Source: Pseudomonadota bacterium (GTDB taxonomy: Bacteria > Pseudomonadota > Alphaproteobacteria > UBA828). From it: 64,000 nucleotides of DNA. The stretch is taken from positions 24,694 to 88,693 of the forward strand of contig JAQBTG010000002.1 of the NCBI GenBank assembly GCA_027624955.1. The letters run 5' to 3'. Shown piece after piece: positions 1,041 to 29,807 of this stretch. Each line of letters opens with the position of its first letter. Within the stretch, counting starts at the first letter, position 1. Under the pieces are notes generated by a model that was not told the origin of the DNA, did no database searches, and saw only the letters and a list, made by a program, of their open reading frames with translations. Position numbers and translations under genes: made by a program.

Positions 1041-1120
1041 GTCAGGCCCCAGGTCCTTGGACTTGTCAGGCCCCAGGTCTTTGGACTTATCAGGCCCCAG
1101 GTCTTTGGACTTATCAGGCC
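1041..1120. repeat. Perfect/near-perfect 24-bp tandem repeat, 3.3 copies (gtcaggccccaggtcYttggactt), in the intergenic region between the hyuB-like stop and the SDIMO alpha start.
   Basis: Units lie at 1041-1064, 1065-1088 and 1089-1112, with a partial unit at 1113-1120 that overlaps the hyuB-like stop codon. The spurious plus ORF 970-1239 reads SGPRSLDL x3 across it. Confidence 0.9.
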
Positions 1121-2961: not shown

Positions 2962-2973
2962 ATTTAAGCTCCC

Positions 2974-5064: not shown

Positions 5065-5368
5065 TCCTGCTCTCCCGATTTCTTCATATTTGGCCGTGCG
5101 TACCACGCATTTTTAAGATGCTCGACGACCTTGTCCTTGGATTCGATCTTGCGCGAATTGGAGGCGGCGATCAAATACTCAAGCGCGTCTTTGGCAAAAC
5201 AGTCGAAATTATTTTTCGCCGCGCCGACGTCTAGGCTCCTCAGCCGCACGCCATCCTGTGACCAGGCCGTTTTTTGCGCTCGATCTCCAGCCAGCCAATA
5301 TTTTTAAAGCCTTGTTGGTGGCGGCCAGCTAACGTAGCAGCCCTCTGGATTGGGAAGGCGGCAAAATT

Positions 5369-11506: not shown

Positions 11507-11940
11507 CGGTATGCGGTGGAACGTCACTCAAATTTGCGGCGGCGGTCGCACCCCAGGGCGCATCCCAGGGCAGCTTGACTGTTTGACCGGTATCGTTAGA
11601 TCGGCTCCTGGTACATCGGAACGACAATTTCCGAGACCATGCGCGGTAGCTCTATGCACCTGCGGGGGTTGTCAGACAAACTGATCTGGCGGATCTCGGC
11701 AGCAAACATCGGATCGTGCCGGCTCCACCAGAACCGCACCGTCTGGTGGCAAATGTCTATCCCACGCTCGAACGGCGGATCCTCAACCTGCCGCTACGAC
11801 AGCGGATAGCTGATGTACATCGTGACCGCGAGGCGGATCACCTTGGGTGAGCTGTCGAAATAGCGGAACGGATTTGCCGTCCGCCCGGGCTATGCGTCGC
11901 CCACGCCGCCATCAAGCCGGTTTGGTCCGACAGAGCCCAT

Positions 11941-11998
11941 AGAAGGCCACCTGATCTCGGAGGCCGCTGCATTGAAAACGTTGCTGTGGCTTCTGCCG
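11941..11998. repeat. Copy B of the ~58-bp direct repeat (see 6415-6472). It overlaps the annotated GTG start of the fused oxoprolinase-like ORF.
   Basis: The sequence agaaggccacctgatctcggaggccgctgcattgaaaacgttgctgtggcttctg aligns with copy A. Confidence 0.7.
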
Positions 11999-14900
11999 CT
12001 GCCGGCACTTATATTGTGGTCGCTGTCAGCCATTTTGTGGCCTATTTGGGCAACGGCAATTTCGGAGTGTTACGACGTGGGCGAACGAACGGTGATGTTG
12101 CTGTGATTCTCGGCGTAGACGTTGGCGGCACCTTCACCGACCTGCTGCTTGCCGATCCCAAGACCGGGCGCTTCGAGATTGCCAAGGTGCCCTCTACGCC
12201 AGCCGATCAGTCGGACGGGTTCATGGCCGGCATCCAGGCGCTCGGCGCCGATCCGAGCACACTCGATTCAATCATTCACGGCACGACCGTGGGCACCAAT
12301 GCGGTGCTTGAACGGAAGGGCGTGCGCTGCGGGCTGATCACCACGCGCGGCTTTCGCGACACGCTGGAGCTTGGCCGGCGCACGCGGCCCAACCCTTGGG
12401 GCATGACCGGCCATTTCGAGCCGCTCGTGCCGCGCGACCGCCGGATTGAGGTGAGCGAGCGCATCGACGCCTCGGGCCGCGTGGTGACAGTGCTCGCAGA
12501 AGACGAGGTGCGCGAAGCCGTGGAGACGCTGCGCGAAGCCGGCGCGGAAGCGCTCATCATCCATTTCATTCACTCCTACCTCAATCAGGACCACGAGCGC
12601 CGCGCCGGTGAAATCGCGCGCGAAACCTGGACCAACGGGCATATCACGCTGGGCTCTGAGGTCTTGCGCGAAGTACGCGAGTTCGAGCGCGGCAGCACGG
12701 CGGCGCTCAACGGCTATATCCAGCCCATCATGACGCGCTATCTCGGCCATCTCCAACAGCGTCTGCGCGATGCCGCGTTTGGCCATGAATTGCTCGTGAT
12801 GCAGGGCAATGGCGGCATGATGAGCGCTGCGACCGCTGGTGAAAAAGCGGTTCATACCGTGATGTCGGGTCCGGCCGCGGGTGCAATTGCCGCGGCGCAT
12901 CTCGGCAGCGCCGCGGGCTTTCCGAACGTGATCAGCTGCGACATGGGTGGCACCAGCTTCGACATCGCCATCGTAAAAAACGGCGTGCCAACGACCACGA
13001 CCGAGAAGGACATCAGCTACGGCATGCCGCTCCGCGTGCCGATGGTCGATATCCAGACCATCGGGGCAGGCGGCGGCAGCATTGCCCGCGTTGATACCGG
13101 CGGCATCCTTCGCGTCGGGCCGGAAAGCGCGGGCGCGACACCCGGCCCGATCTGCTACGGGCGGGGCGGCACCGAGCCCACCGTGACCGATGCCAACCTC
13201 CTGCTCGGGCGGATCGACCCGGATACGATCGCGGGCCTCAATACCGGCCTTGGCGCAGACGCGGTGCGGCGTGCCATTGCCGAGAAGATCGGCAAACCGC
13301 TGGGGCTCGACGCCACCGAGGCGGCAGCGGCGATCATCCGCGTGGTCGATCATCAGATGGCGGGTGCGGCCAGGCTGGTCTCGGTCGACAAGGGAAACGA
13401 CCCACGAGAGTTCGCGCTGTTCGCATTCGGTGGCGCGGGTCCGATGCACGCGACGGCGATCGCGCGCGAGCTCGGCGTGCCGCATGTGGTGGTGCCGCGC
13501 TATCCCGGCATCACCTCGGCGCTCGGCTGTGTGCTCGCCGATGTCCGCCATGATTTCGTGCAGACCCTGCACACACCGCTCGAAGACGTGGATGTTGACG
13601 AGGCGGACCGCATTCTTGCCGACCAAGCTCACGAAGGGCGCGAGGTATTGGCGCGCGAGGGCGTGGCGGTCACGGCGGTCGAGGTCAGCCACGAGGCCGA
13701 TCTCTTCTATCGCGGCCAAAGCCATATGTTCCGCGTCGCGGTTGAGAGCCCGGGCTTCTCACTGGATGCAACGCGCGAGCGCTTCGCCGATCTCTACCGC
13801 GAGCGCTTCGATATTCTTTTGCCTGAGATGCAGCCGATCCTGGTGAGCCTCCGGACCACGATTCGCGGCGTCCGCACCTCGCCCGAGCTCACCTTCACGC
13901 CGAGCGCTGCTAAGAACGATCTGGCGGCCGCGCGAATCTCAACCCGCCCGGTCTTTTTCGATGGCGCTTGGCACGAGACGCCGATCTATGAACGCGAGCG
14001 CCTGCCGGCGGAAGCTGAGATCACCGGCCCCGCCGTTATCCAGCAGCTCGATACCACCATCCTCATTGAGCCGGGTTCGACCACGCGCATCGACCGCGCG
14101 GGCAACCTGATCGTCGAGGTGCCGCAAGCCGCCGCACAGAAGATCGCTGGGGCGCTAGATGCCGTGACCCTCGCGGTTATTCAAAGCGGTCTCGAACAAG
14201 TTGCGAGCGAGATGGACCTGGTTCACCAGCGCACCTCGTTCTCGCCGGTGATCTCCGAGGCCTACGACCGATCGAACGGGATTTACGACGCCGTAACCGG
14301 CGACATCATTGCCCAGGGCGAACTTGGGCTGCCGATCTTCCTTGGCGTCATGCAATCGACGACACAAGCCGTGATCGCCGAGCGCAAGGATTTGGAGCCC
14401 GGTGACATCATCCTGATCAACGATCCGTATAAGGGCGGCACGCATCTGATGGACGTCAAGATGGTGCGCCCTTTCTACTATAAAGGCAGGCACTGGGCGT
14501 ATCTCTCCAACACGGGGCATTGGCCCGACACTGGCGGCATGGTGCCGGGCGGCTTCTCCTCCGAGGCCACTGAGATCCAGCAGGAAGGCCTGCGTCTGCC
14601 CCCGGTAAAACTTTATCGGCGCGGCGTGATCGACCAGGACATCTTGCAAATCGTGCTGGCAAACATCCGCGTGCCAGACGAACGTGTCGGCGACATCCGC
14701 GCCCAGGTGGGCGCTCTTTCGGTCGGCGAAAAACGGCTTACGGCACTGCTCGACAAATACGGCGAAGCTACAGTCAGCGCAGCCATCGAGGCGCTCAAGG
14801 ACCGCTCCGAACAGCGCATGCGCGCGCATATCGAGACCATCCCCGACGGCGCATATGTTTTTTCCAGTTATATGGACAGCGACGGTGTCGATGACGCGCC

Positions 14901-15840
14901 GCTTGAAGTGCGCGTCAACACGACCGTCAAAGGCAGCGACATCCACGTCGATTTCTCGGGCTCCAGCCCGCCTTGCCGCGGGCCTGTCAACTCGGTTTGG
15001 GCGACCACGCTGGCCTCGGTCTATTGCGCGGTTAAGCACATCTTCCCCGACGTGCCGATCAACGCCGGCTGCTTCCGGCCGATCGCCGTCACCCCACCGC
15101 ATGACACGTTTCTCTATGCGACCTATCCGCGCCCGGTTTCGGGCTGCGCCGCCGAGACCGCACAGCGCATCATGGAAGCCGTGTTCGGCGCCTTGGGCCA
15201 GGCAATCCCGGAACGCATGTTCGCCGCACCCGCCGGTACCAGCGGCAATTTCAGCTTGGGCGGCGAAGACCCCGACGAAGGGCGCCGCTACGTCATGTAC
15301 ATCTTCTCGGGCGGCGGCTACGGCGGCTGGTGGGAGACCGACGGCCTGACCAACGGCTGCTCCTCTGTCGGCATCTCCAAAACCCAGCCGGCCGAGATAT
15401 TGGAGCAGCATTACCCGATCCTGTTCGAGGAATATGCGCTCCGCGAAGGCTCGGGCGGCGCCGGGCGGCATCGCGGCGGCTTCGGCGTCAACTACCGGGT
15501 CCGCCTGTTGCGGGGCGAGGCGAAAGCCTCGTTTATGATGGATCATGGGCGCATCGGTCCGCCCGGCTTGGGTGGCGGCCTGGCGGGTGCGGTGAACGAA
15601 ATAGAGATCACGCGCGGCGGTAATACCGAGCGGCCACCGCATCTCTCCAAGGGTGAGGGCTATGCGCTTCGTCCCGGCGACGTGGTGCAGGTACGCACAC
15701 CGGGCGGCGGCGGTTACGGCGATCCGCACGCCAGGCAACGTTCGAGGGTGGTTGAGGATCTTCGCCGGAATTACCTTAGCGCCGAGGATGCGGTGCGCGA
15801 CTACGCCTTCGATCTCACTGCAGACGAAGCCGCCGAGTAA
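11986..15840 (+). CDS. Fused hydantoinase A + hydantoinase B protein (5-oxoprolinase OplA-like, ATP-hydrolysing). The true start may be the GTG near 12103, just before VILGVDVGGTFTD.
   Basis: A 1284-aa ORF. The N-terminal half has the HyuA DVGGTFTD motif. The C-terminal half from about aa 730 is HyuB-like (AVTLAVIQSGLEQVASEMDLV...). The only in-frame ATG/GTG upstream of the motif is the GTG at 11986. Confidence 0.85.
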   Translation: MASAAAGTYIVVAVSHFVAYLGNGNFGVLRRGRTNGDVAVILGVDVGGTFTDLLLADPKTGRFEIAKVPSTPADQSDGFMAGIQALGADPSTLDSIIHGTTVGTNAVLERKGVRCGLITTRGFRDTLELGRRTRPNPWGMTGHFEPLVPRDRRIEVSERIDASGRVVTVLAEDEVREAVETLREAGAEALIIHFIHSYLNQDHERRAGEIARETWTNGHITLGSEVLREVREFERGSTAALNGYIQPIMTRYLGHLQQRLRDAAFGHELLVMQGNGGMMSAATAGEKAVHTVMSGPAAGAIAAAHLGSAAGFPNVISCDMGGTSFDIAIVKNGVPTTTTEKDISYGMPLRVPMVDIQTIGAGGGSIARVDTGGILRVGPESAGATPGPICYGRGGTEPTVTDANLLLGRIDPDTIAGLNTGLGADAVRRAIAEKIGKPLGLDATEAAAAIIRVVDHQMAGAARLVSVDKGNDPREFALFAFGGAGPMHATAIARELGVPHVVVPRYPGITSALGCVLADVRHDFVQTLHTPLEDVDVDEADRILADQAHEGREVLAREGVAVTAVEVSHEADLFYRGQSHMFRVAVESPGFSLDATRERFADLYRERFDILLPEMQPILVSLRTTIRGVRTSPELTFTPSAAKNDLAAARISTRPVFFDGAWHETPIYERERLPAEAEITGPAVIQQLDTTILIEPGSTTRIDRAGNLIVEVPQAAAQKIAGALDAVTLAVIQSGLEQVASEMDLVHQRTSFSPVISEAYDRSNGIYDAVTGDIIAQGELGLPIFLGVMQSTTQAVIAERKDLEPGDIILINDPYKGGTHLMDVKMVRPFYYKGRHWAYLSNTGHWPDTGGMVPGGFSSEATEIQQEGLRLPPVKLYRRGVIDQDILQIVLANIRVPDERVGDIRAQVGALSVGEKRLTALLDKYGEATVSAAIEALKDRSEQRMRAHIETIPDGAYVFSSYMDSDGVDDAPLEVRVNTTVKGSDIHVDFSGSSPPCRGPVNSVWATTLASVYCAVKHIFPDVPINAGCFRPIAVTPPHDTFLYATYPRPVSGCAAETAQRIMEAVFGALGQAIPERMFAAPAGTSGNFSLGGEDPDEGRRYVMYIFSGGGYGGWWETDGLTNGCSSVGISKTQPAEILEQHYPILFEEYALREGSGGAGRHRGGFGVNYRVRLLRGEAKASFMMDHGRIGPPGLGGGLAGAVNEIEITRGGNTERPPHLSKGEGYALRPGDVVQVRTPGGGGYGDPHARQRSRVVEDLRRNYLSAEDAVRDYAFDLTADEAAE

Positions 15841-15899
15841 GCCGCCGAGTAAGCCCGCGACAAAGCCGCTGAATGAGCGCCTGATAAGGATATCGAAAC

Positions 15900-17237
15900 A
15901 TGACAAATTATCCCGACACCGGCTCACGCTCCGCCGCGCTCTTTAAGCGTGCGCAAGCAGTGCTGCCCGGCGGCAACTCGCGGCAAAGCGTCTATCGTGC
16001 GCCGTACCCGATCTACATCCAATCGGCCAAAGGCGCGGTGTTGACCGATGTCGACGGCATCGAGCGCACGGATTTTCTCAACAACTTCACCTCACTCATT
16101 CACGGCCATGCACATCCGGACGTGATTGCGGCGGCGGCGGCGCAGCTTCCGCTCGGCACCTGTTATGCCGGCCCGACCGAGGCGGAGATCATGCTGGCGG
16201 AGCTGATTTGCGAGCGCTTGCCTTCAGCCGAGCGCGTGCGCTTCGCGAATTCCGGCACCGAGGCGGTGATGATGACTATCAAGGCGGCGCGTGCGCATAC
16301 GGGCCGGTCGAAGATCGCGAAATGTGAAGGCGCCTATCACGGTACCTATGATTATGCCGAAGTGAGCGAAGGCGTCGGGCCGGACGTATGGTCAGCGAGC
16401 GACCCAACTGCCATCGCCACCTCGCGCGGCACGCCAGCCGGCGTGCTCAGCGATGTCGTCGTGATGCCGTTCAATGATCCGGTCGCGGCCGAACGTATCC
16501 TGACACCGGAAGCTGGCAACCTCGCGGCCATTATCATCGACCCGTTGCCCAACCGTTGCGGCTTGACACCCGCCAACCAAGTATTCCTAAAATTTCTTCG
16601 TGATTTCGCTGACCGCCACGGCATCGTCCTCATCTACGATGAAGTCATCAGCTTCCGCATTGGCTTCAATGGTGCGCAGGGCGTGTTTGGCGTGTTGCCT
16701 GACCTCACGGCGCTCGGCAAGATTGTCGGCGGCGGCTTTCCCGTCGGCGCTATCGCCGGGCGGGAAGAAGTCATGTCGGTGTTTGATCCACGGGCGAGTG
16801 CGGTCGCGCTGCCCCATGCCGGTACGTTCAACGCCAATCCAGTTACGATGGTGGCAGGGCTGACGACGATGCGCCTCCTAGACGAGAAGCGCCTGGCCGA
16901 ATTGAACGCCTTGGGTGAGAAGGCGCGTGTTGCCTTCCGCGCCGCGATGGCCGATGCGGGAGTCGCCGGGCAAGTCACCGGCGCTGGCTCGCTGTTTCGG
17001 CTTTATCTCAACGACCGCCCGATCAGCGATTACCGCTCGGCCTATGTCGATGCCGACGAAAAGGCGCGCATGGCGCGGCTCAACCGCTATTTCCTCAATC
17101 ACGGTTTCATGATGGCGCCCTACGGCATGGGCAATTTGTCTACCGCGCTCGTCGAGGCCGATATCACCCGTTTCGCCGATGTTTTGCGGGACGGATTGCG
17201 CGATCAATTGCGCAATGCCGAAGACGAAGCTGCCTAA
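15900..17237 (+). CDS. Class III pyridoxal-phosphate-dependent aminotransferase (GSA-aminomutase / omega- or beta-amino-acid transaminase-like).
   Basis: A 445-aa ORF with the class-III AT fold and HemL-like layout. It has the YDEVISFR segment; the Schiff-base lysine lies in LGKIVGGGFP. Confidence 0.8.
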   Translation: MTNYPDTGSRSAALFKRAQAVLPGGNSRQSVYRAPYPIYIQSAKGAVLTDVDGIERTDFLNNFTSLIHGHAHPDVIAAAAAQLPLGTCYAGPTEAEIMLAELICERLPSAERVRFANSGTEAVMMTIKAARAHTGRSKIAKCEGAYHGTYDYAEVSEGVGPDVWSASDPTAIATSRGTPAGVLSDVVVMPFNDPVAAERILTPEAGNLAAIIIDPLPNRCGLTPANQVFLKFLRDFADRHGIVLIYDEVISFRIGFNGAQGVFGVLPDLTALGKIVGGGFPVGAIAGREEVMSVFDPRASAVALPHAGTFNANPVTMVAGLTTMRLLDEKRLAELNALGEKARVAFRAAMADAGVAGQVTGAGSLFRLYLNDRPISDYRSAYVDADEKARMARLNRYFLNHGFMMAPYGMGNLSTALVEADITRFADVLRDGLRDQLRNAEDEAA

Positions 17238-17266
17238 CCTAATCCCGGTTTAAGGAGTATTTTCTT

Positions 17267-18160
17267 ATGGCGCGAAAAGTCATCATCACCTGCGCGGTCA
17301 CCGGCTCTGCCGATACCGTCGGCAAGAACCCAGCCGTACCGGTCACACCGCAGCAGATCGCCGATTCGGCGATAGAGGCGGCGAAGGCGGGGGCTGCGAT
17401 CGTGCATGTCCATGTGCGCGACCCCGAAACCGGCCAGGCCAGTATGGCGCCTGAGCTTTACGAGGCAACGGCGGGCCGCATCCGGGAGAGCAACACCGAC
17501 GTGGTGCTGAATCTGACCACCGGTTATGGCGGTCGCATCAGCCTCGGGCTCGATAATCCACTCGAATTCGGGCCCGGCACGACCATGACTTCGCCGGCGC
17601 GGCGGATCGAGCATGTCTTGGCGCTCAAGCCGGAAATTTGCAGCCTGGATGTCGCGACCATGAATTCCGGCGGCATCCGCGACGAGAGCGTGATGATCAA
17701 CTCGCCGCCGCATCTGCGCTACATGGCCCAGGCGATGCGCGAGAACGGCGTGGTACCGGAGCTCGAAGTGTTCGATGTCGGACATGTGCGCCTCGCCCGG
17801 CATATGCTCGAAGCTGACCAGATTGCGCGCCCCGGCTTCTTCCAGCTTTGCCTCGGAATCCAATGGGGCGCGCCTGCGACGCCTGCCGCGCTTAACTATC
17901 TGTTGACCCTGTTGCCCGAGGGCGCGCATTGGGCGGCGTTTGGCATTTCGCGCGATCAATTGCCGCTGGCTGGCCTTTCCATTCTGAGCGGCGGCCATGT
18001 GCGCACGGGGCTTGAGGACAATCTCTATCTGCGCCAGGGCGAACTTGCGCCGTCTAACGCGGCGTTGGTCGAGCAGGCTGTCACGTTGATCGAGATGTTC
18101 GGCTGCGAAGCCGCAACGCCGGCCGAGGCGCGGGATATTCTCAACCTCCGCAAGCCCTGA
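17267..18160 (+). CDS. BKACE family enzyme (3-keto-5-aminohexanoate cleavage enzyme-like, DUF849), a beta-keto acid cleavage enzyme.
   Basis: A 297-aa ORF with an AAGGAG RBS. The N-terminus VIITCAVTGS...VPVTPQQIADSAIEAAKAGAAIVHVHVRD is typical of Kce/BKACE TIM-barrel proteins. Confidence 0.8.
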   Translation: MARKVIITCAVTGSADTVGKNPAVPVTPQQIADSAIEAAKAGAAIVHVHVRDPETGQASMAPELYEATAGRIRESNTDVVLNLTTGYGGRISLGLDNPLEFGPGTTMTSPARRIEHVLALKPEICSLDVATMNSGGIRDESVMINSPPHLRYMAQAMRENGVVPELEVFDVGHVRLARHMLEADQIARPGFFQLCLGIQWGAPATPAALNYLLTLLPEGAHWAAFGISRDQLPLAGLSILSGGHVRTGLEDNLYLRQGELAPSNAALVEQAVTLIEMFGCEAATPAEARDILNLRKP

Positions 18161-18168
18161 TCCAGCCG

Positions 18169-19968
18169 ATGGCTGGCAACCCCCAGATTGAGAGTGAGGG
18201 CTATACCCTAGAGCCGATGATGCTCGCCGTGCTATCGCGGCGCTTCGAGGCGATCTGCCGCGAGATGACCAACGGCATTTTGAAGGCCAGCCGTTCTGCC
18301 GTGATCAAAAACGCGCGCGATTTCTCGGTCGGCATCCTGACCCACGATCATCGATTGATCAGCGTTGAGGACGGCCTGCCGATCCACATCACCGCCCTCG
18401 ACCTCACCACGCGCGCGATCGATCGCCTGTTCGACGATATTGGAGAGGGTGACGCTTTTCTTAACAACTGCCCCTATTACGGCGCGACGCATCACGCCGA
18501 TCTCGATGTCATCGTGCCGGTGTATTTCGAGGGGCGTATCATGTTCTGGGCGCTCGTGCGTTGCCATCATGCCGACATGGGCGCGCCGCTGCCGACGACC
18601 TATTTGCCGCATGCTGCGACGATTTATGAGGAAGGTCTGCATTTCCCCGGCGTGCGCGTGGAGGAGGGCTACAAATCCAAGGCCGATATCCTGCGTATCG
18701 GATTGACTAAGATTCGCGCGAGCAAGATCTGGCTGGGCGATTATCGGGCGCAGCTTGGCGCCTGCCGCATCGGCGAGCAGCGCTTGAAGGAGCTGGTCGA
18801 GCGCCACGGTAGTACGATGATCGAGGACTTTATCGAAGACTGGATAACCTATGGCGAGCGCCGCACCAAAGCCGCCATCGCCAGTTTGCCGGCGGGCACC
18901 TGGTCATACGCGACAAAGCATGATCCGGTGCCGGGTGTGGCGGAAGACGGCATTCCGGTGCGCGTCACGGTTACGGTCGACCCTGAAGCCGGCGAGGTCA
19001 CGGTCGATGCCCGCGACAATATCGATTGTGTGCCGGGCGGGCTCAACCTGTCCGAGGCAACGGCCACCGCGTCCTGCCGCATCGGCGTGTTCGTCAATCT
19101 CGACCCTTCGATCCCGCACAACGAAGGCAGCGCCCGCTGTATCAACGTGCTATTGCGCGACGGCTGCGTCGTCGGCCGCCCGGCCTATCCCGTCGGCACC
19201 TCGGTCGCGACGACCAACGTCAACGACCGCTTGATCAACGCGGTGGCGTGCTGCTTCGCTCAGATGGGCAGCCCGCACGGCATTGCCGAAGGCGGCGGCA
19301 TGATGGCGAGCGGGCTGGCGGTGATTTCCGGCGACGATCCGTTGCGCGGCGGGCGCGCCTATGTGAACCAGCTTTTCGTTGGCTATTCGGGCGGGCCCGG
19401 CATCCACGGCCATGACGGCTGGCTCACCTATAACGACGCCGACACCTGCGGCATGCTGATGCTTGATTCGGTCGAGGTCGACGAAGGCATGTATCCGATT
19501 TTGATCGAGGAGCGCGGGGTGGCGCCCGACACCATGGGGCATGGCCGCTGGGACGGGGCGCCGGCGATGACCGGTATCTACGGGCCGCTCGCCGCTGAAA
19601 TGACAGCGATCTATTGCAGCGACGGCGATGTGGCGGCGGCACGCGGCGTGCTCGGCGGTCATGACGGCGCGCCTTCGTGCAACTGGAAGCGCGACGGTGC
19701 GGGCGGCTGGACAGAGATGCCGAGCTTCCATACCGAAATCTGCCAGCCGGGCGAGGCGCTGCGTTTCCTGGCAGGTGGCGGTGGCGGTTACGGCAACCCA
19801 AAGGAGCGCGCGCCCGAACGCGTGGTCGAGACGGTCAATCGCGGCTGGCTCTCAGCCGAGCGCGCCGAGGCGACCTACGCGGTCAAGCTCCGAATATCTG
19901 AGGACGGCCTCGATTACGTACTCGATGACACCGCGACGGCTCAACTGCGCACCAGCAACGGCGACTGA
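18169..19968 (+). CDS. Hydantoinase B / oxoprolinase family protein (second HyuB-like paralogue).
   Basis: A 599-aa ORF that is clearly paralogous to the 1114-2961 product, with the same block order (e.g. ICREMTN, GDAFLNN.PY). Its start lies 9 bp after the BKACE stop. Confidence 0.85.
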   Translation: MAGNPQIESEGYTLEPMMLAVLSRRFEAICREMTNGILKASRSAVIKNARDFSVGILTHDHRLISVEDGLPIHITALDLTTRAIDRLFDDIGEGDAFLNNCPYYGATHHADLDVIVPVYFEGRIMFWALVRCHHADMGAPLPTTYLPHAATIYEEGLHFPGVRVEEGYKSKADILRIGLTKIRASKIWLGDYRAQLGACRIGEQRLKELVERHGSTMIEDFIEDWITYGERRTKAAIASLPAGTWSYATKHDPVPGVAEDGIPVRVTVTVDPEAGEVTVDARDNIDCVPGGLNLSEATATASCRIGVFVNLDPSIPHNEGSARCINVLLRDGCVVGRPAYPVGTSVATTNVNDRLINAVACCFAQMGSPHGIAEGGGMMASGLAVISGDDPLRGGRAYVNQLFVGYSGGPGIHGHDGWLTYNDADTCGMLMLDSVEVDEGMYPILIEERGVAPDTMGHGRWDGAPAMTGIYGPLAAEMTAIYCSDGDVAAARGVLGGHDGAPSCNWKRDGAGGWTEMPSFHTEICQPGEALRFLAGGGGGYGNPKERAPERVVETVNRGWLSAERAEATYAVKLRISEDGLDYVLDDTATAQLRTSNGD

Positions 19969-19972
19969 GCGC

Positions 19973-22030
19973 GTGCGCTTCAATGTTTGCATCGATATCG
20001 GCGGCACGTTCACGGATTGCGTGGTGGCGGACGATGCCGGCACGGTTGAAATATTCAAGTCACCCACCACGCCGGGCCAATTCGAGCTAGGCTTCATGGA
20101 TGCGCTCGCGCTTGCGGCGGCTCATCATGGGCTGGAGCTGCCGGCATTTCTCGCGACCTGCGAGCGGATTGTGCATGGCACCACCGTTTCGACCAATGCC
20201 TTGGTCGAAGGCAAGACGGTGCCCACTGGCTTTCTGTGTAACAAGGGCCATCCAGATATTTTGACTTTTCGCGAGGCGCCTCGGAAACGCTGTTTCGATT
20301 TTCGCCTCGACTATCCCAAGCCCTATGTGCCGCGCCAGATGACAGCCGAAATTGGCGGGCGCATTGATGCCCAGGGGCGCGAGCATGTGCCGCTGGTGGA
20401 AAACGACGTGCGCGCGGCCGTCGATATGCTGCAACGGCGGAGCGTGCAGGCGATTGCCGTTTGCTTTTTGTGGTCGACCGTGAACCCGGCGCATGAGCTT
20501 CGGGCGCGCGCCATCGTTCACGAGATGTGGCCCGAGGTATCGGTCACGTTGAGCCACGAGCTCAACCCGATTCCGCGTGAGTACCGGCGCGCCATCTCGA
20601 CGGCGATTGACGCGTCGCTCCACCCGATCGTCAGCGCCTATACGAAAGCGCTCGCCGGTGCGCTCGAGGCCAACGGCTTCGATACCGATCATTTCCTTGT
20701 CGCAACCTGCACCGGCGGCATGATGCCGCCCGACGCGATCGTGGCGAAGCCGATTTTCAGCGTCATGTCGGGGCCGACGTTGGCACCGGTCGCGGCGCAA
20801 CATCTGACGAACGCGCCGGATGTCGTGGTTGTCGACATGGGCGGTACGACGTTCGATGTCGCAGCGATCCGCGATCGCCGGCTGATCGTCAATGACGAGG
20901 CCATGATCGGCGATGACATGCTGGGCATTCCCAAGGTGGACGTGCGCTCGGTGGGCGCCGGCGGCGGCAGCATCGCCTGGGTCGATGTTGGCGGTATGAT
21001 CCAGGTCGGGCCGCAAAGCGCCAGCGCCCAGCCAGGTCCGGCATGTTATGGCCTGGGCGGCACAGAGCCGACGGTGACGGATGCCAATGTCGTCCTCGGG
21101 CTGATTGATCCCGATGATTTTCTCGGCGGGCGCATGCACCTCGATGCCGCAGCCGCAGAGAAGGCGGTGGGCACGCTCGGCCAAATGCTCGGCCTCGGCC
21201 TGATCGAAACAGCTCTGACGATCCACACCACCAGCAATCACAACATGATCGCGGCGATCGAAGACATCACCGTGATGGAAGGCATCAACCCGCGCGAGAG
21301 CTTCCTCGTCGCCGGGGGTGGCGCAATCGGTTGCCATATCGGTGGCATCGCGCGCGAGCTCGGAATTAGGCGTTTCATGTTGCCACGGTTTGCTGCTGGC
21401 CTCAGTGCGTTCGGTGGCCTGATCTCGACCATCAAGTGGGAGCAAGCGACGACAGTTTTCTCAATCGCAGAGGATTTTGCGCTTGCCGCCGTCAATGAGG
21501 CGCTCGTCAGTATGCGCCGCAAAGGTGCCGCATTTCTTGAGCGCGCCGGACTCGAACCCGAAACACATCATTTTGAATGCGTTTTCTTTGGTCGATACGA
21601 GTTCCAGTCCTGGGAGATTGAAGTGCCGTTCGATGCTGCCGGTGGTCAACTTGTCGAAGCAGATATCGCCAAGCTGACGGCAGACTTCCATCGTCTGCAT
21701 GAGCGCATCTATGGCGTGAAGGATGAAGAGGACAGCGTCGAATTCGTGAGCTGGAAAGTGCGGGCGTTTGGCGAGGTTGCCAGGCTAAAAGGCGATAGCG
21801 ACCGGGTTGAACAAACCTATATGCCTGCATCAGAAGGCCAGCGCACGATCTTCCTCAGCGACCCCGAAACGCCGCTGGCTGCCCAGTTCTACCGTACAAA
21901 AAACATATCATCGGGTGCGGTTATCGACGGGCCGGCGGTGATTGCCGATGACACAACAACGATTGTCATCCATCCGGGATCAGTCGCGACCGCCGACGAA
22001 AACGGCAATCTTGTTGTCGTACAGGCATAA
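19973..22030 (+). CDS. Hydantoinase A / oxoprolinase family protein (second HyuA-like paralogue). A GTG start lies 5 bp after the hyuB stop.
   Basis: The translation (M/V)RFNVCIDIGGTFTDCVVAD... carries the HyuA N-terminal motif. About 110 codons at the 5' end of the track ORF (19628-) overlap hyuB in an Arg-rich wrong-context frame, so the GTG at 19973 is the plausible start. Confidence 0.8.
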   Translation: MRFNVCIDIGGTFTDCVVADDAGTVEIFKSPTTPGQFELGFMDALALAAAHHGLELPAFLATCERIVHGTTVSTNALVEGKTVPTGFLCNKGHPDILTFREAPRKRCFDFRLDYPKPYVPRQMTAEIGGRIDAQGREHVPLVENDVRAAVDMLQRRSVQAIAVCFLWSTVNPAHELRARAIVHEMWPEVSVTLSHELNPIPREYRRAISTAIDASLHPIVSAYTKALAGALEANGFDTDHFLVATCTGGMMPPDAIVAKPIFSVMSGPTLAPVAAQHLTNAPDVVVVDMGGTTFDVAAIRDRRLIVNDEAMIGDDMLGIPKVDVRSVGAGGGSIAWVDVGGMIQVGPQSASAQPGPACYGLGGTEPTVTDANVVLGLIDPDDFLGGRMHLDAAAAEKAVGTLGQMLGLGLIETALTIHTTSNHNMIAAIEDITVMEGINPRESFLVAGGGAIGCHIGGIARELGIRRFMLPRFAAGLSAFGGLISTIKWEQATTVFSIAEDFALAAVNEALVSMRRKGAAFLERAGLEPETHHFECVFFGRYEFQSWEIEVPFDAAGGQLVEADIAKLTADFHRLHERIYGVKDEEDSVEFVSWKVRAFGEVARLKGDSDRVEQTYMPASEGQRTIFLSDPETPLAAQFYRTKNISSGAVIDGPAVIADDTTTIVIHPGSVATADENGNLVVVQA

Positions 22031-22147
22031 ATCCAGCCCTGCGACCTTCGCGGTGACAGGCGAATTTGATATCCGCTGTCAGACTTGAGCCGACCGAAGA
22101 ATCAAGTCTCGTTGGTTGCTTGGCCGCACACGCAACAGGAGCAAATA

Positions 22148-23173
22148 ATGCGTATCTATGTAATCGGCGCGGGGGCCATGGGCTCCTTGTATGGCGGGTT
22201 GTTGGCGCGAAGCGGGTGTGAGGTAATTTTTGTCGATCGCTGGCGGGAGCACATGGATGCGGTCGCGGCGGACGGGCTCCGGCTGAGCGGTATCACCGGC
22301 GATTTCACCGTGCCGGTGCGGGCGATTTACGCTTCTGAAGAAGCGGGCATGCTGGCCGACGGCGGTGACGGCGATATCGCCATTATCTTGACGGATGCCA
22401 ATTCCACCGCGTTTGCCGCCAGCCTGGCGAAGCGGCTGCTCAAGCCGGGCGGTTACGCGCTGACGCTGCAAAACGGGATTGGCAATATCGAGGCGCTGGA
22501 GGCCGAACTCGGCCGCCCACGTGTGATTGGCGGGCTGAGCTATCATAGCGCCGCCATGGTCGAACCCGGCCACGCCATCCATACTCATAAGGGACCGACC
22601 TGGATTGGCGAGCTCGACGGCACGCCAAGCGCACGGGTAAGCGCGCTGGCGACGATGCTCAGCGACGCCGGCTTTAAGCCGCAGATTGTCGCGGATATCC
22701 TCGGCCAGATCTGGACGAAATTTATCCATAATTGCGCGATTAATCCGGTCTCGGCGCTGACCGGCCTCCGGGTTGGCGAGATATCGCGGGTGGCGGAGGC
22801 CGATGCGCTGCAAAGCGCGATTATTGAAGAGGCGCTCGCGGTGGTCGCGGCCAAGGGCATTGCTCTCGTCGACAGCGACCCGATGGCGAGCATCAAGAAA
22901 TTCTGCCTCGCCAAGTTCAACAAGCCCTCCATGTTGCAGCATATGGAGCAGGGCCGGCGCACCGAGATCGACGCGCTCAACGGCGCGCTGGTGCGTGAGG
23001 GCCGCGCCCTCGGCATTGCCACGCCGTATAACGAGGCCGTGACCTGGATGGTGGCGGCGATGCAGCACCAGAACATGCAGGTGATGCACGGCGCGCCGAT
23101 CGACTATGAGGCGCTCGAGGCCGAGATTAAGGGTGGCGCGGCGGCAGACCGCTCAGAAGACGAGGAAACCTAG
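22148..23173 (+). CDS. 2-dehydropantoate 2-reductase family (PanE/ApbA-like) NAD(P)H-dependent ketoreductase.
   Basis: MRIYVIGAGAMGSLYGGLLARSG (Rossmann) with an AGGAG RBS. Length is about 341 aa. The C-terminal ketopantoate-reductase domain includes LQHMEQGRRTEIDALNG. Confidence 0.8.
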   Translation: MRIYVIGAGAMGSLYGGLLARSGCEVIFVDRWREHMDAVAADGLRLSGITGDFTVPVRAIYASEEAGMLADGGDGDIAIILTDANSTAFAASLAKRLLKPGGYALTLQNGIGNIEALEAELGRPRVIGGLSYHSAAMVEPGHAIHTHKGPTWIGELDGTPSARVSALATMLSDAGFKPQIVADILGQIWTKFIHNCAINPVSALTGLRVGEISRVAEADALQSAIIEEALAVVAAKGIALVDSDPMASIKKFCLAKFNKPSMLQHMEQGRRTEIDALNGALVREGRALGIATPYNEAVTWMVAAMQHQNMQVMHGAPIDYEALEAEIKGGAAADRSEDEET

Positions 23174-23222
23174 GCATCGCCGCTGTGCTAGTCTGGTCAC
23201 GCTGGGATCAAGGAGCAAGCAG

Positions 23223-23570
23223 TTGGTAATCGTTATTTTCGAGTACGTCATCAAGGAAGGGCAGGCCGAGCGCTATTTAGAGACGGCGGCAAAGCTCATG
23301 CCGCTGGTTGAAACATTCGACGGTTTCCTTGGCGTGGAGCGCTACCAGAGCCGCACCGAAGCCAATAAACATCTCTCGCTTGTCTTCTGGCGCGACGAAG
23401 CCGCGATCGAGCCCTGGCGCAATCATCCGAATCATCGGGCTGCTCAAGATCTTGGGAAATCCGAGATATTCGAGGATTTCCGTATCACCGTGGTTGATAC
23501 CTTACGGTCCTATACGATGGGCGACCGAGGCGGCGCCCATACCGAAGATGCGATGCAAGCATTGGCCTGA
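23223..23570 (+). CDS. Antibiotic-biosynthesis-monooxygenase (ABM) domain protein, about 115 aa, with a probable TTG start.
   Basis: LVIVIFEYVIKEGQAERYLE...FDGFLGVERYQS...LSLVFWRDEAAIEPWRNHPNHRAAQ fits the ABM ferredoxin-like fold. An AAGGAG RBS sits 7 nt before the TTG at 23223. The upstream part of the track ORF (from 23106) is Arg-rich junk. Confidence 0.6.
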   Translation: MVIVIFEYVIKEGQAERYLETAAKLMPLVETFDGFLGVERYQSRTEANKHLSLVFWRDEAAIEPWRNHPNHRAAQDLGKSEIFEDFRITVVDTLRSYTMGDRGGAHTEDAMQALA

Positions 23571-25445: not shown

Positions 25446-27098
25446 TCACCCAGCCGGTCCAAAAGACTCGGTGTGAATGCGTTCGGAAGGAATGCCCTGC
25501 TTCTCAAGTGTGTTCTGAATATTAGCCATAAACGCCGTCGGACCACAGAGCAGATAGTGCGCCTCGGGTAGTGCCGAAAGGGAGGCAATCAAATCACCGT
25601 CGATCCGTCCTTCGGAATCGTAGTCGATACCGAGTTTGTCCTCGGCGAGCGGTTTGCTGTAGGCAATGTGCAGATTGATTCCCGGACGGCGAGCCGCGAG
25701 ATCGCGTATCTCGCTCGCCAAAGCGTGGTGGGCGCTGTCGTGGCTGCCGTGGATAAACCAAACCGGACGCGCTCCGTCTTCGCCCGCCAGAGCATGAAGC
25801 ATCGACGCCATTGGCGTAATACCCACGCCTGCGCTGACCAGCAACACGGGGCATTGGTCACATGGAAGGATGAGATCGCCGATAGGGTTGCGGGCGTCGA
25901 CAAAAGCGCCAACTTCAATCTTGTCATGCAGATGACGCGAGGCGATGCCCAGCGGGTGGCGCTTTACGGTTGTTCTGTAGCGTTCGGCGCTTGGTCGACC
26001 GGAGAGCGAATAGGTGCGGCCAACCGTGCCGTCAATGCCTGGTACGTTAAGTTCAATCGGCAGATATTGACCCGCTGCAAAAAGAGGCAGGGGACCGCCA
26101 TCGCGCGCCTCAAATACAAATGACGTAATGTCCGCGCTCTCCCGGGCCTTCTCGATGAGCCGCAGGGTGCGGACGGAATCGGCGGATGCTTGCCACCGTA
26201 AAGCTACAGCGGAGGGGAGTTCGACAACCTGTTCGATATCTAGGGAGACCAAGCGTCGCGCTCCGGGAATTGCAGCGACAGCGTCCGAATCCCAATCGAT
26301 CGTTGTCCGGCCAGTCAGTTGCAGCAGGCTCCCCGTCGTGAAGTCCACAAACAACAATCCTGCTCTGGCATCGAGCACGAGGTTGCCGATGGTGTTGAAG
26401 TGATTGTTGCCGGCGAAATCCGGGAACCGTATTTGCGTTTGGTTCATCACCTGTACGAAGCCGGGTTCGCCGCCGCGGTGCGAGGCATCCATGCCGTATG
26501 CCGGACTTTCTTCTTCGCCTGCGTGGCCGCTGGCGATAAAAAATGTATCGGCCGACGAGATCCAGGCGATCTGTGATGGTGTGAGACGAGTGCCGCGCGA
26601 TGGCACGCCGGCTGAATTATCGCTGGTCCGCCGCCATTGCCGCTCGCGAATATATTGCGGGCAATTTCCGAAAGCTTGGTCCACGGAAAACAGCAAATCT
26701 CCGGTAGCGTTCGTAGAGACCCGGCCATTGACGCGATTGCGCCGGCGGCTGTCGAGCTCAATTCCCAGTAGCCCAAGGTGGTGCCCTGATGACAGCGTAC
26801 CCTCCAAGGCGTCGCCATCAGCGAGCGTTGCGTCTATGACCAGTGACTTGGAATCCGGTGACGTGATGAAGTTCTCTGGCCCTGTGAGCAAAGTTGCCCA
26901 AGGGCGTCCCCGGTCGTCGCGTGCTGCGGCGACCAAAAAGGGCAGGGCTGTGTGGAAGTCGAGGTGATCCTTCGCCAAGAACGGGCGCACGACTTTCCGC
27001 GCCCAATCTTCGATATCTTGAACACCCATCCTTCTCTGAACATCATGCTCACCGGAATGGAAAGGCGAACCGCTTTCCGTCCAATCATCGGTCATCAT
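25446..27098 (-). CDS. Two-domain flavoprotein: a pyridoxamine-5'-phosphate-oxidase-like FMN-binding domain fused to a ferredoxin-NADP reductase-like FAD/NAD(P)-binding oxidoreductase domain.
   Basis: A 550-aa ORF. The C-terminal half carries RTYSLS (the FNR-type RxYS FAD motif) and LLVSAGVGITP (the NAD-binding GxGxxP motif). The N-terminal half is a PNPOx-like split-barrel. Its start overlaps the upstream VOC stop (ATGA). Confidence 0.7.
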   Translation of the reverse strand: MMTDDWTESGSPFHSGEHDVQRRMGVQDIEDWARKVVRPFLAKDHLDFHTALPFLVAAARDDRGRPWATLLTGPENFITSPDSKSLVIDATLADGDALEGTLSSGHHLGLLGIELDSRRRNRVNGRVSTNATGDLLFSVDQAFGNCPQYIRERQWRRTSDNSAGVPSRGTRLTPSQIAWISSADTFFIASGHAGEEESPAYGMDASHRGGEPGFVQVMNQTQIRFPDFAGNNHFNTIGNLVLDARAGLLFVDFTTGSLLQLTGRTTIDWDSDAVAAIPGARRLVSLDIEQVVELPSAVALRWQASADSVRTLRLIEKARESADITSFVFEARDGGPLPLFAAGQYLPIELNVPGIDGTVGRTYSLSGRPSAERYRTTVKRHPLGIASRHLHDKIEVGAFVDARNPIGDLILPCDQCPVLLVSAGVGITPMASMLHALAGEDGARPVWFIHGSHDSAHHALASEIRDLAARRPGINLHIAYSKPLAEDKLGIDYDSEGRIDGDLIASLSALPEAHYLLCGPTAFMANIQNTLEKQGIPSERIHTESFGPAG

Positions 27099-27616: not shown

Positions 27617-28414
27617 CTAGCCGATCATCACGCCATTCTGGATACACAGCACCTCGCCCTCGTCGAGCGGCACCCAGCCCTCGTCTGAAAGCGGCACGCT
27701 GGCAACTAAGACAACATGCTGGTCTTCGCTGTCGAAATGCAATCCCGGAATATCATAGGCAGACTCCGGCGCGCATTGCCGGCACAGCCGATACAATCCG
27801 GGTGGCGCGACATTTCCCGAGGTGGGTTGTGTTCTCTTGTTGCCATGCGCAAAAAATGCATCGCCATCGGCGTAAAGGAAATTGGCCGGACCCAGCGGAC
27901 TGATTTCAGCCGCGAATTGACTAACGATTTGATGGCGGTGGGTCAGCGACGGAACCCCTCTGGTACTGAGCCAAAGCTCAGATAAACGCTCAAGCAGGAT
28001 GCAGAAGGCGTGCTCGGAATCGGTCTCTCCGACGGGTCGATAGCGCTGATATGACAGCGGCTTCGCCGTTTCGATGTCGTGCAGGTTGCCGTTATGCGCG
28101 AAGACATGCTTGCGCCCGCCAAGCTCCCGCATAAACGGGTGGGTGTTGATGAAAGATACGCTGGTCCCCGTCGCCGAGCGGATGTGCGAAAGAATGATTT
28201 TACTGTTGAGCTTTTGCCGGCCGATGAACTCCACCCATTCGCTGCCGGCGGCGGGCCCGGCCTCCTTGATGAGCCTGGCGTCGCGGTCTTCAAAATATGC
28301 GATGCCCCATCCGTCACGATGCGGCCCCGTGTCACCGCCATGCCTGGCGAACGTATCGAGGGAGAGTTTCGCGGTAACCGGAATATTGCTGGAAAGACCG
28401 AACAGTTCGCACAT
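27617..28414 (-). CDS. Class II (Ntn-type) glutamine amidotransferase domain protein, stand-alone (YafJ/EgtC-like amidohydrolase).
   Basis: The N-terminus begins MCELFG (Cys2 nucleophile after Met removal). A 265-aa GATase-II domain has no fused synthetase domain. Confidence 0.8.
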   Translation of the reverse strand: MCELFGLSSNIPVTAKLSLDTFARHGGDTGPHRDGWGIAYFEDRDARLIKEAGPAAGSEWVEFIGRQKLNSKIILSHIRSATGTSVSFINTHPFMRELGGRKHVFAHNGNLHDIETAKPLSYQRYRPVGETDSEHAFCILLERLSELWLSTRGVPSLTHRHQIVSQFAAEISPLGPANFLYADGDAFFAHGNKRTQPTSGNVAPPGLYRLCRQCAPESAYDIPGLHFDSEDQHVVLVASVPLSDEGWVPLDEGEVLCIQNGVMIG

Positions 28415-28508
28415 TTTATGAAGAAACCTTTTCAGCTATCGGCCTGGCAGCCGGCAATTGCAGCAGCGCAAAGGTGTTACCGCGTTTCAGCGGCGCCGGG
28501 TCGGGAAT

Positions 28509-29807
28509 TTAATCGCTCGGTGTTGGCACCTTTGGCGCGTGTTGCAGGACGTCGACATAATGTTCACGGATCGCTCCGAGGTTGACCTGATTCAGAAAGG
28601 CCGAATAAGCGAGGTAGGACACAAGAAACCGTAGGTCCTTCACCCAAGGCGGCAGATAGCGGGGAAATTGGCAAAGCCCTTCCTGGACCAATATGCAGAT
28701 CGCCGGCAGATCTTCGATGTTGAGTTTGCCGCAGAATAGCAAACGGATGCAGTCCAGCCGGTCGAGCTGCACGGCGACCCGCAAGAAATTATGAACGCGC
28801 AGAAGCCCTTCTAGATAGACCACATCCTTGGTAAACGGCGCACCGCCAGTGACCAATCCGCCGCGCACCACCCGGCGCGCATTTTCGAAGGATTGGCGCG
28901 TGCTGTCGGTGCGCTCGAAAAAGAATTTATAGATCTCGAGAAAATCGGCGCCGTCGATCGCCATTTGTATCGCGATGACACGGTCGGCCAAGCGGCGCAT
29001 GCGGCTCGGGTCCATAGCGCCACTGATGATTTCGGCGAACACGGCGAGGCCTTCTTGCGTGCGTGTGGTGCCGGGATGCCCCGCCGCCAGCAGGGGCATT
29101 CGCTTCTGCTCATGGCCATTCAGGGTGGTCCCGATATGGACGAAGGCCTCGTGCTGAATCAGTTGCGCGCAGTCTCGGTCGGAAAACACCGCATCGCTGC
29201 GAAATCGGATATAGCGTCCTCCGGCGATGGCTTTCGCGGATAGATGATCCATGATCTCAAGGCGCGGCGCGGCAGCGCCAAAATGCGCGACGACTTGAGG
29301 GCGGATTTGTTCGACCAGTTCGGTTGCGCTGTATTCTATGGGCGATTCGTCGAGGTGGAGGTCCTGATGCTTGAAGCCGGCCAGCACACCGTCGAGCGCC
29401 TGGGCGAGATCGATGGGACGGGTAACTTTATCCACCATGGCCGCATTCGGCGCGCCGTACAGCTCGGCCGACAATTCGAAAAATTCTTTCGTTCCGACGG
29501 CACCGACCATATTTGCACCGGTATCGACCACATCGGCGACCCTCGATAGCCAGTGATGGACGGGCGAGGAACCATCGATCAAGGCGCGGGCGGCGCGAGT
29601 GCGCTCGTGTGTTTCATCGGGGCGAATCTGGGTATACGTTACCTGTGGCAGGGCGCATGCTCTTTTCGCCATGAACGCTTCGTAAGCGTCTTCAGGCCAT
29701 GCCACGCTGCGCAACATGCGCACCGGGCGTTCAGCTTCGCGCAAGGCAGCGGCTGCTTCGATTATTCGATCGCGCTCTCGTGAGCTAAATTCGGCGGTGG
29801 CGTTCAA
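28509..29807 (-). CDS. DUF1704 / 'flavohemoglobin expression-modulating QEGLA motif' family protein, with an HExxH motif suggesting a gluzincin-like metallohydrolase. TTG start.
   Basis: It contains QHEAFVH (HExxH) followed 27 residues later by TRTQEGLAVFAE (the QEGLA motif, a possible third zinc ligand Glu). Length is 432 aa. An AAGGAG RBS sits 8 nt before the TTG. Confidence 0.65.
   Translation of the reverse strand: MNATAEFSSRERDRIIEAAAALREAERPVRMLRSVAWPEDAYEAFMAKRACALPQVTYTQIRPDETHERTRAARALIDGSSPVHHWLSRVADVVDTGANMVGAVGTKEFFELSAELYGAPNAAMVDKVTRPIDLAQALDGVLAGFKHQDLHLDESPIEYSATELVEQIRPQVVAHFGAAAPRLEIMDHLSAKAIAGGRYIRFRSDAVFSDRDCAQLIQHEAFVHIGTTLNGHEQKRMPLLAAGHPGTTRTQEGLAVFAEIISGAMDPSRMRRLADRVIAIQMAIDGADFLEIYKFFFERTDSTRQSFENARRVVRGGLVTGGAPFTKDVVYLEGLLRVHNFLRVAVQLDRLDCIRLLFCGKLNIEDLPAICILVQEGLCQFPRYLPPWVKDLRFLVSYLAYSAFLNQVNLGAIREHYVDVLQHAPKVPTPSD

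Follow-up and report, generated by a model that had tools for sequence, protein, structure and literature searches.

A five-gene unit at positions 12103–22030 of the window, the 64,000-nucleotide stretch of contig JAQBTG010000002.1 (assembly GCA_027624955.1, a metagenome-assembled genome; Alphaproteobacteria, UBA828) analyzed here, encodes a fused HyuA–HyuB protein, a class III aminotransferase, an enzyme of the BKACE family and a second, split HyuB/HyuA pair. This module is real and conserved, and as a combination of known kinds of enzyme it is apparently undescribed. We judge it about evenly balanced whether the five genes form a catabolic operon that converts at least one carboxylate-bearing cyclic amide, via a β-amino acid and a β-keto acid, into an acyl-CoA and acetoacetate. 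The unit lies within a run of seven co-directional open reading frames on the plus strand (11986–23570), which an earlier sequence-only reading had proposed as a single module. The run itself is real, and Pfam profile searches bore out every domain assignment made there (Hydantoinase_A/B, Aminotran_3, BKACE, ApbA and ABM); the conserved unit, however, comprises five genes rather than seven, the ApbA and ABM genes being its neighbors and not its members.

The five genes recur in four other loci (L086, L087, L090 and L002) at 60–89% protein identity, and the operon is shared with further bacteria of the sea and of soil. Alignment with the metagenome contig L090 returned a single contiguous match of 9,961 bp at 78.5% DNA identity (window 12103–22022), spanning the fused-gene start codon to the end of hyuA and stopping at both ends. 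Gene order is likewise kept in L086 (marine metagenome) and L087, at 77–89% protein identity as far as the contigs reach, and DNA homology with all three loci ceases at ~22022–22025, before the ApbA gene. The complete 2.9-Mb contig L002 carries all five genes at 60–67% identity in a rearranged order, with HyuB and HyuA first, then a binding protein and, after it, the fused Hyu, the aminotransferase and BKACE, beyond which lie EamA and Liv-type permease genes; L091 shares this layout from the binding protein onward (fused Hyu, aminotransferase, BKACE). Adjacency in diverged genomes, together with homology that ends at the borders, delimits an operon-level unit made up of these five genes and excluding ApbA and ABM. 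The five-gene arrangement exceeds chance: a lack of neighborhood conservation, named beforehand as the outcome that would expose a fortuitous juxtaposition, was not what we found for the core, given its synteny in three loci and its rearranged recurrence in a fourth. Liv-type or TRAP transporters lie alongside the module in L002, L091, L072 and L170, which fits import of a carboxylated nitrogen compound.

Both Hyu systems score well over the Pfam gathering scores of the hydantoinase/oxoprolinase superfamily. The fused protein contains Hydant_A_N, Hydantoinase_A and Hydant_A_C followed by Hydantoinase_B (562 bits), and the split HyuB matches Hydantoinase_B at 400 bits. Among solved structures, the fused protein aligns best, over its full length, with the 1288-aa N-methylhydantoinase 7hk5 (E 9e-219) and next with caprolactamase (6yra, chains A and B), whereas the top matches of the split pair are caprolactamase itself: CapB for HyuB (6yra_B, E 2e-61) and CapA for HyuA (6yra_A, E 1e-118). 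Scored against individual enzymes, the fused protein reached 732 bits with N-methylhydantoinase, 402 + 275 with caprolactamase and 353 + 97 with acetophenone carboxylase; the split pair reached 401 + 211 bits with caprolactamase and 266 + 106 with acetophenone carboxylase. The NCBIfam models gave the same ranking, with CapA (NF050156) at 551 bits for the fused and 550 for the split system and CapB (NF050157) at 334 and 270, all below the cut-off of 1000, and ApcC at 360 and 281 and ApcD at 103 and 105, all below the cut-off of 1500. The Cap scores under the cut-off point to the same kind of enzyme but not the same enzyme. Both systems score clearly higher with hydrolases of lactams and hydantoins than with ketone carboxylases.

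The catalytic motifs of the two systems are intact. The fused protein displays the ATP motifs DVGGTFTD, DMGGT and GATPGP, and the split HyuA displays DIGGTFTD and DMGGT; a strict GxxPGP motif was not found in the latter. Each of the window's three HyuB modules has equivalents of the CapB metal ligands D41, H99, D102 and H124; in the split HyuB these are D51, the H and D of a THHAD motif, and H133. In caprolactamase, the ATP and metal sites are essential as judged by mutagenesis (PMC8453981, whose abstract numbers the third CapB ligand D101). Orthologues of the fused protein occur in L090 (84%), L085 (80%), L002 (67%) and L091 (67%), and those of the split pair in L086 (HyuB 88%, HyuA 77%) and L002 (65% and 62%).

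The aminotransferase matches Pfam Aminotran_3 (180 bits) and falls below every NCBIfam equivalog cut-off, including those of HemL (TIGR00713, 325 versus 527 bits) and PRK00062 (343 versus 398 bits). Its top solved structure is 6k8h (StoTA), an ω-transaminase from Sphaerobacter thermophilus (E 1e-137, ~57% identity by manual count on the printed alignment) that deaminates β- and γ-amino acids (PMC10589169). StoTA residues R36, K282 and T317 align with Arg28, Lys274 and Thr309 here; the arginine is proposed to hold the substrate carboxylate in the P pocket, and the threonine positions the catalytic lysine (PMC10589169). R28 and K274 are invariant among the seven BKACE-adjacent relatives. Fold, catalytic lysine and P-pocket arginine together place the protein, by homology, in the class III β-amino-acid transaminase branch. 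Scanning metagenome contigs with the aminotransferase alignment yielded 80 relatives at 46–83% identity, and Hyu genes lay within 6 kb of 30 of them, a pattern noted for relatives at 50–58% identity and almost always without BKACE; when only relatives with at least 3 kb on both sides were counted, the fraction was 14 of 29. Transaminases of this type therefore habitually accompany ATP-dependent amidohydrolases, and the adjacency backs a lactamase-to-transaminase step. The adjacent Hyu genes nearest to those of the window (51–67%) belong to the fused lineage (L091, L092, L097, L135, L155 and L170), a set that includes a locus on a Rhizobium plasmid where a TRAP transporter and an IclR regulator are also encoded; the remaining pairs are only 33–45% identical to the window's.

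The BKACE protein matches its family profile (PF05853) over the full length (336 bits, profile positions 1–274) and the solved structures 9zsc and 3c6c at E 1e-80. Its Zn ligands (H47, H49 and E250) and the catalytic residues E167, R246 and D251 are invariant across 98 aligned relatives; for residue mapping we relied on what we take to be the sequence of Kce. Curated equivalogs all scored below their cut-offs: Kce, the best of them, gave 250 versus 382 bits, 3,5-dioxohexanoate cleavage 218 versus 430 and 3-oxoadipate cleavage 205 versus 350. The database name '3-keto-5-aminohexanoate cleavage protein' is generic and not a substrate assignment, and relatives at ~60% identity carry the JGI label dehydrocarnitine-cleaving. 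Among 80 BKACE relatives from species-representative genomes, Hyu genes occurred within 6 kb in only two and this aminotransferase in five. We also considered R90, which follows the TTG motif, as a sign of a dicarboxylate substrate, an idea drawn from the β-ketoadipate group logo in the NetSyn preprint supplement; it was rejected as non-discriminating, since R90 is present in 93 of the 98 relatives, from many contexts.

With enzyme classes assigned by homology, and with step order and substrate nature read from gene context, the following scheme can be proposed. The fused Hyu protein and the HyuB/HyuA pair would each open a stable lactam-type or hydantoin-type ring using ATP, acting either on different but related rings or within a single compound, on two of its rings or at two stages. 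The product of the fused enzyme, at least, would be an amino acid with its amino group β to a carboxylate. The aminotransferase would then transfer this group to an oxo-acid acceptor, leaving a β-keto acid, and BKACE would combine the unstable β-keto acid with acetyl-CoA to release acetoacetate and a shortened acyl-CoA; trapping of this kind would make a separate CoA ligase or thiolase unnecessary. The scheme gains support from the closest characterized aminotransferase relative, which deaminates β- and γ-amino acids and whose carboxylate-binding arginine is kept here. The sequence-only reading had suggested the same succession of ring opening, transamination and BKACE cleavage; it agrees with the branch of the aminotransferase and with the Hyu genes beside its relatives, but left a chemical constraint unaddressed. 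A simple monocyclic lactam cannot give a β-amino acid, and the ring has to bear a further carboxyl or carboxymethyl substituent, as in the β-homologue of 5-oxoproline, or else a second amino group. Purely as an illustration, (5-oxopyrrolidin-2-yl)acetate would be opened to 3-aminoadipate, transaminated to 3-oxoadipate and cleaved to succinyl-CoA and acetoacetate. More tentatively, we suggest that marine and soil Alphaproteobacteria possess a natural route in which a carboxylated lactam, or a related pair of them, is opened at the cost of ATP to a β-amino acid that is transaminated and then cleaved by BKACE, in place of a CoA ligase and thiolase.

Several observations weigh against this proposal. 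Every protein scores below the NCBIfam equivalog cut-offs. L085 has its fused Hyu gene (80%) next to BKACE (80%), with the aminotransferase precisely missing, so the Hyu product may reach BKACE without transamination, or the aminotransferase may be encoded elsewhere. BKACE relatives at 76–81% identity reside in unrelated contexts (L001, L003 and L088), indicating that the coupling is not obligatory. Hyu paralogues are numerous in each genome, exemplified by a third pair in the window (1114–5106) and three pairs in L090, which raises the background for chance adjacency. Moreover, the window lacks a transporter and a regulator by the module and bears an insertion-sequence scar at the module's 5′ side, so this copy may be incomplete or poorly expressed.

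Partial and looser assemblies were also recovered. L089 retains only the aminotransferase (76%) and BKACE (77%). In L083 (9700–10900) and L084 (9400–10900), the fused gene is represented by its first 200–300 bp, joined onto the aminotransferase gene's 3′ end, with an intact BKACE adjacent (92% identical) and no HyuB/HyuA after it; this deletion derivative is a decayed copy and an example of module loss. Looser combinations of BKACE, Hyu and class III aminotransferase were found in Mesorhizobium sp. Root102 (L072, NZ_LMCP01000007.1) and on a plasmid of Sphingobium sp. TomTYG64 (L172; AP027328.1, 407–418 kb), whose aminotransferases are 37% and 49% identical, respectively, to that of the window. 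In the Sinorhizobium meliloti and S. medicae loci matched by single proteins, the genes are not combined. Split-pair orthologues (64–71%) without BKACE or aminotransferase occur in L176 (Ensifer psoraleae), L177 and L178; that of L176 lies beside a Liv-type ABC transporter and an Amidohydro_1 gene, and the neighbors differ in the other two. This suggests that the split pair attacks an imported compound on its own.

The last observation bears on a different order of steps, in which the lactamases act after BKACE: a β,ω-diamino or ω-amino-β-hydroxy acid would become an ω-amino-β-keto acid and then an ω-aminoacyl-CoA, and one or both Hyu enzymes would re-open the dead-end lactam cyclized from it (for example, 2-pyrrolidone from 4-aminobutyryl-CoA). 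ω-Aminoacyl-CoAs do cyclize spontaneously. The best curated model, Kce, cleaves an amino-β-keto acid, the ~60%-identical relatives carry the dehydrocarnitine-cleaving label, L085 combines a GMC oxidoreductase with fused Hyu and BKACE but no aminotransferase, and HyuB–HyuA stand downstream of BKACE in the window. Yet the free-standing split-pair orthologues suggest attack on an imported compound, and the aminotransferase relatives that neighbor Hyu genes without BKACE, 30 in 80, fit lactamase before transaminase; we consider the reversed order unlikely. Slightly more doubtful is an ATP-dependent ketone carboxylase role for one or both Hyu systems, akin to that of acetone or acetophenone carboxylase. 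They would make the β-keto acid of BKACE, or recapture it once it has spontaneously decarboxylated, and the aminotransferase would turn an amine or β-amino acid into the ketone or keto acid. Carboxylation of acetone to acetoacetate and of acetophenone to benzoylacetate gives products of the BKACE substrate class (PMC8453981, PMC5214803), β-keto acids readily decarboxylate (PMC10589169), and the fused Hyu–BKACE arrangement of L085 without an aminotransferase would be directly explained. The metal and ATP motifs are common to both branches and hence do not discriminate. The scores favor the hydrolase branch: as given above, the CapA and CapB models exceed ApcC and ApcD for both systems, and acetone carboxylase alpha matches the split HyuB only at E 7e-14. 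In addition, the HyuB modules measure 570–600 aa, not the 684–776 aa of carboxylase subunits, and no gene for a small carboxylase gamma or epsilon subunit was found among the five core genes, whose 4–59 bp gaps leave no room for one.

It is less likely again that separate cassettes (a lactamase–transaminase, BKACE and a second lactamase) were merely juxtaposed by rearrangement in Hyu-rich genomes and share no pathway. Parts of the module do occur apart (L085, L089, L176 and the 30 aminotransferase–Hyu loci, which lack at least one partner), an IS6 scar marks its edge, L083 and L084 hold a decayed copy, and each genome contains many Hyu paralogues. Set against this, contiguity with 4–59 bp gaps is kept across loci down to 60% protein identity, L002 has reassembled the five genes in a different order, and Sphingobium and Mesorhizobium have built analogous triads from non-orthologous parts. 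Contiguity, reassembly and analogous triads form the pattern expected from selection for joint function.

The nearest known systems are the caprolactam pathway of Pseudomonas jessenii (CapAB plus 6-aminohexanoate aminotransferase) and, for valerolactam, OplBA of P. putida. There, an ATP-dependent HyuA/HyuB-type lactamase opens the stable ring, and the amino group set free is taken off by a class III aminotransferase (PMC6061476, PMC8453981). In its B–A gene order the split pair resembles them, and CapAB is its best solved-structure match. In contrast to the caprolactam system, the proteins here score far under the CapA and CapB cut-offs, the aminotransferase belongs to the glutamate-semialdehyde-aminomutase/β-transaminase branch, and a BKACE and a second, fused lactamase are present; caprolactam degradation instead proceeds from an aldehyde via a dehydrogenase to adipate and β-oxidation. 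The fusion itself recalls the eukaryotic OPLAH-type 5-oxoprolinase and the N-methylhydantoinase 7hk5, which share the A–B architecture at ~1250–1290 aa but are distant matches. Given the conserved β-transaminase and BKACE neighbors seen here, glutamate and N-carbamoylsarcosine are unlikely products, because neither would need such chemistry downstream. Acetone and acetophenone carboxylases share the superfamily and its ATP and metal motifs and yield β-keto acids, but differ in their lower scores, their gamma/epsilon genes and their longer HyuB modules.

Known BKACE pathways, as the NetSyn preprint supplement relays them from Bastard et al. 2014, include Kce in lysine fermentation, dehydrocarnitine cleavage and 3-oxoadipate cleavage. 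These enzymes are Zn-dependent TIM barrels that convert a β-keto acid together with acetyl-CoA to acetoacetate plus an acyl-CoA, and their catalytic residues are conserved here; their keto acids come from a dehydrogenase or the protocatechuate pathway, unlike in our scheme. The same supplement already proposes a class III aminotransferase–BKACE context, for β-amino-acid degradation via β-ketoglutarate, and places hydantoinase/oxoprolinase genes in none of its BKACE contexts. The engineered CORE cycle couples a β-alanine:pyruvate transaminase to a BKACE, so that the transaminase directly feeds BKACE in vivo (PMC11961710), by the two-step logic proposed here; the cycle's module is a synthetic one, built on an unrelated transaminase and on malonate semialdehyde, and its authors describe the BKACE reaction as unknown from natural pathways (PMC11961710). 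The sequence-only reading had called the route uncharacterized. This holds for the whole combination, which is absent from the literature searched, but not for the aminotransferase–BKACE pairing, which has been both proposed and engineered. Full-text queries joining BKACE/DUF849 or β-amino-acid terms with hydantoinase or oxoprolinase retrieved no relevant paper, subscription-only papers being outside the search.

If the proposal is correct, the operon would be the first case in which BKACE serves physiologically downstream of a lactamase, and nature's counterpart to the engineered transaminase–BKACE module. ATP-dependent lactamases and BKACE enzymes form large families, most of whose members have no known substrate, and the operon provides a testable hypothesis for all three enzymes, narrowing the candidate substrates to cyclic amides that open to β-amino acids. 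It also hints at how bacteria trap unstable β-keto acids without losing them to decarboxylation. Practical uses might include mild hydrolysis of stable lactams, β-amino-acid chemistry and BKACE-based synthetic pathways. The idea is testable in cultured carriers of related assemblies, Mesorhizobium sp. Root102 and Sphingobium sp. TomTYG64.

Gene starts (Table 1) were refined by reading the sequence and comparing homologues. The fused gene has a maximal open reading frame from 11986 (1284 aa), but its likely start is the GTG that yields 1245 aa, because homologues measure 1239–1247 aa and DNA homology to L090 begins exactly there; the fusion described by the sequence-only reading is thus genuine, and its length of 1284 aa most likely is not. 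The hyuA frame (19628–22030) was shortened to a GTG lying 4 bp past the HyuB stop codon, the ApbA frame (22085–23173) to an ATG preceded by an AGGAG ribosome-binding site, and the ABM frame (23106–23570) to a TTG preceded by AAGGAG. The resulting intergenic gaps are, 5′ to 3′, 59, 29, 8, 4, 117 and 46 bp. The tight spacing of 5–60 bp claimed earlier for the whole run is accordingly seen among the five core genes (4–59 bp) and broken before ApbA. No regulator, transcription factor or transporter lies inside the cluster, in line with the earlier remark on transcription factors. Scans for promoters and terminators gave nothing exceeding shuffled expectation, and megablast of the 11.6-kb region against plasmids gave trivial matches only.

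Table 1. Features in and beside the five-gene unit (window coordinates, refined starts)
Feature	Coordinates	Strand	Basis
IS6-family transposase gene remnant, N-terminal part, with in-frame stop	~11620..11890	-	Minus-strand translation and tblastn
Fused HyuA–HyuB, 5-oxoprolinase architecture, predicted ATP-dependent cyclic-amide hydrolase	12103..15840	+	Pfam, all four Hyu domains
Class III aminotransferase, predicted glutamate-semialdehyde-aminomutase/β-transaminase branch, 445 aa	15900..17237	+	Pfam Aminotran_3
BKACE enzyme	17267..18160	+	Pfam BKACE, full length
HyuB subunit of the second, split, predicted ATP-dependent amidohydrolase, 599 aa	18169..19968	+	Pfam Hydantoinase_B
HyuA (ATP-binding) subunit of the second predicted amidohydrolase, 685 aa	19973..22030	+	Pfam Hydant_A_N, Hydantoinase_A, Hydant_A_C
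Ketopantoate-reductase (ApbA/PanE) family oxidoreductase	22148..23173	+	Pfam ApbA and ApbA_C
Small ABM-domain protein, 116 aa	23220..23570	+	Pfam ABM, 62 bits

The flanks differ between loci. The ApbA/PanE protein scores 242 bits against TIGR00745, over the subfamily cut-off of 141, which indicates family membership only, and among the related loci only L002 has another ApbA copy, a paralogue at 37% identity that lies on the opposite strand. No ABM homologue was present in any related locus examined. Upstream, the IS6 remnant is 62–70% identical to annotated IS6 family transposases on plasmids by tblastn, although a Pfam search did not recognize it. It sits exactly at the 5′ end of the synteny with related contigs, and the module may have been moved, or severed from a transporter and regulator, by an insertion sequence. 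In L090, the module is followed (15875–20111) by two 680-aa Oxidored_FMN plus FAD/NAD proteins of the 2,4-dienoyl-CoA reductase/amine dehydrogenase type in place of ApbA and ABM; ahead of the module stand one more HyuB–HyuA pair and a gene for a 2-hydroxyacid dehydrogenase.

The third Hyu pair of the window (HyuA, 710 aa; HyuB, 615 aa) is encoded on the minus strand, with a divergent SDR gene beside it at 5369–6118 on the plus strand. Its identity with the module's split pair is 42%, and its nearest counterparts among the loci examined (51–60%) are the pair beside BKACE on the Sphingobium TomTYG64 plasmid and a pair in L044. Its candidacy as a displaced equivalent of the extra upstream pair in L090 was rejected at 24–34% identity. 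Other Hyu loci show further variations. L177 (9001–19779) and L178 (9001–15527) encode several HyuB per single HyuA, with two or three B subunits consecutive and one HyuB followed by a PhyH oxygenase, which points to possible exchange of B subunits on one shared ATP-binding A subunit. In L171 (Sagittula stellata E-37 plasmid NZ_CP155730.1, 89–111 kb), a split A–B orthologue of the fused protein (52–57%) sits within a nicotinate-type cluster that also encodes 6-hydroxynicotinate reductase and molybdenum dehydrogenase subunits, where it could replace the enamidase and open a 6-oxo-tetrahydronicotinate-type ring.

Two BKACE neighborhoods outside the module also stood out. In L001 (8800–12600) and L088 (8500–12200), BKACE relatives (78–81%) are flanked on one side by a sugar-type binding protein (Peripla_BP_1/4) and on the other by a 2OG-Fe(II) oxygenase (DIOX_N plus 2OG-FeII_Oxy), with a cupin also in L001, apparently a distinct, recurring and uncharacterized BKACE context. 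Upstream of the aminotransferase–BKACE pair of L089 (5246–10897) are an HpcH/HpaI aldolase, a second class III aminotransferase and an APH-type kinase, the last two reminiscent of phospho-lyase systems. Elsewhere in the window, both on the minus strand, 25446–27098 encodes a 550-aa protein that combines PNPOx-like FMN-binding domains with an FAD/NAD reductase module of the flavohaemoprotein type and has no globin domain, and 27617–29807 holds a MATCAP/DUF1704 tyrosine-carboxypeptidase homologue (432 aa, 406 bits) beside a class II glutamine amidotransferase-like gene.

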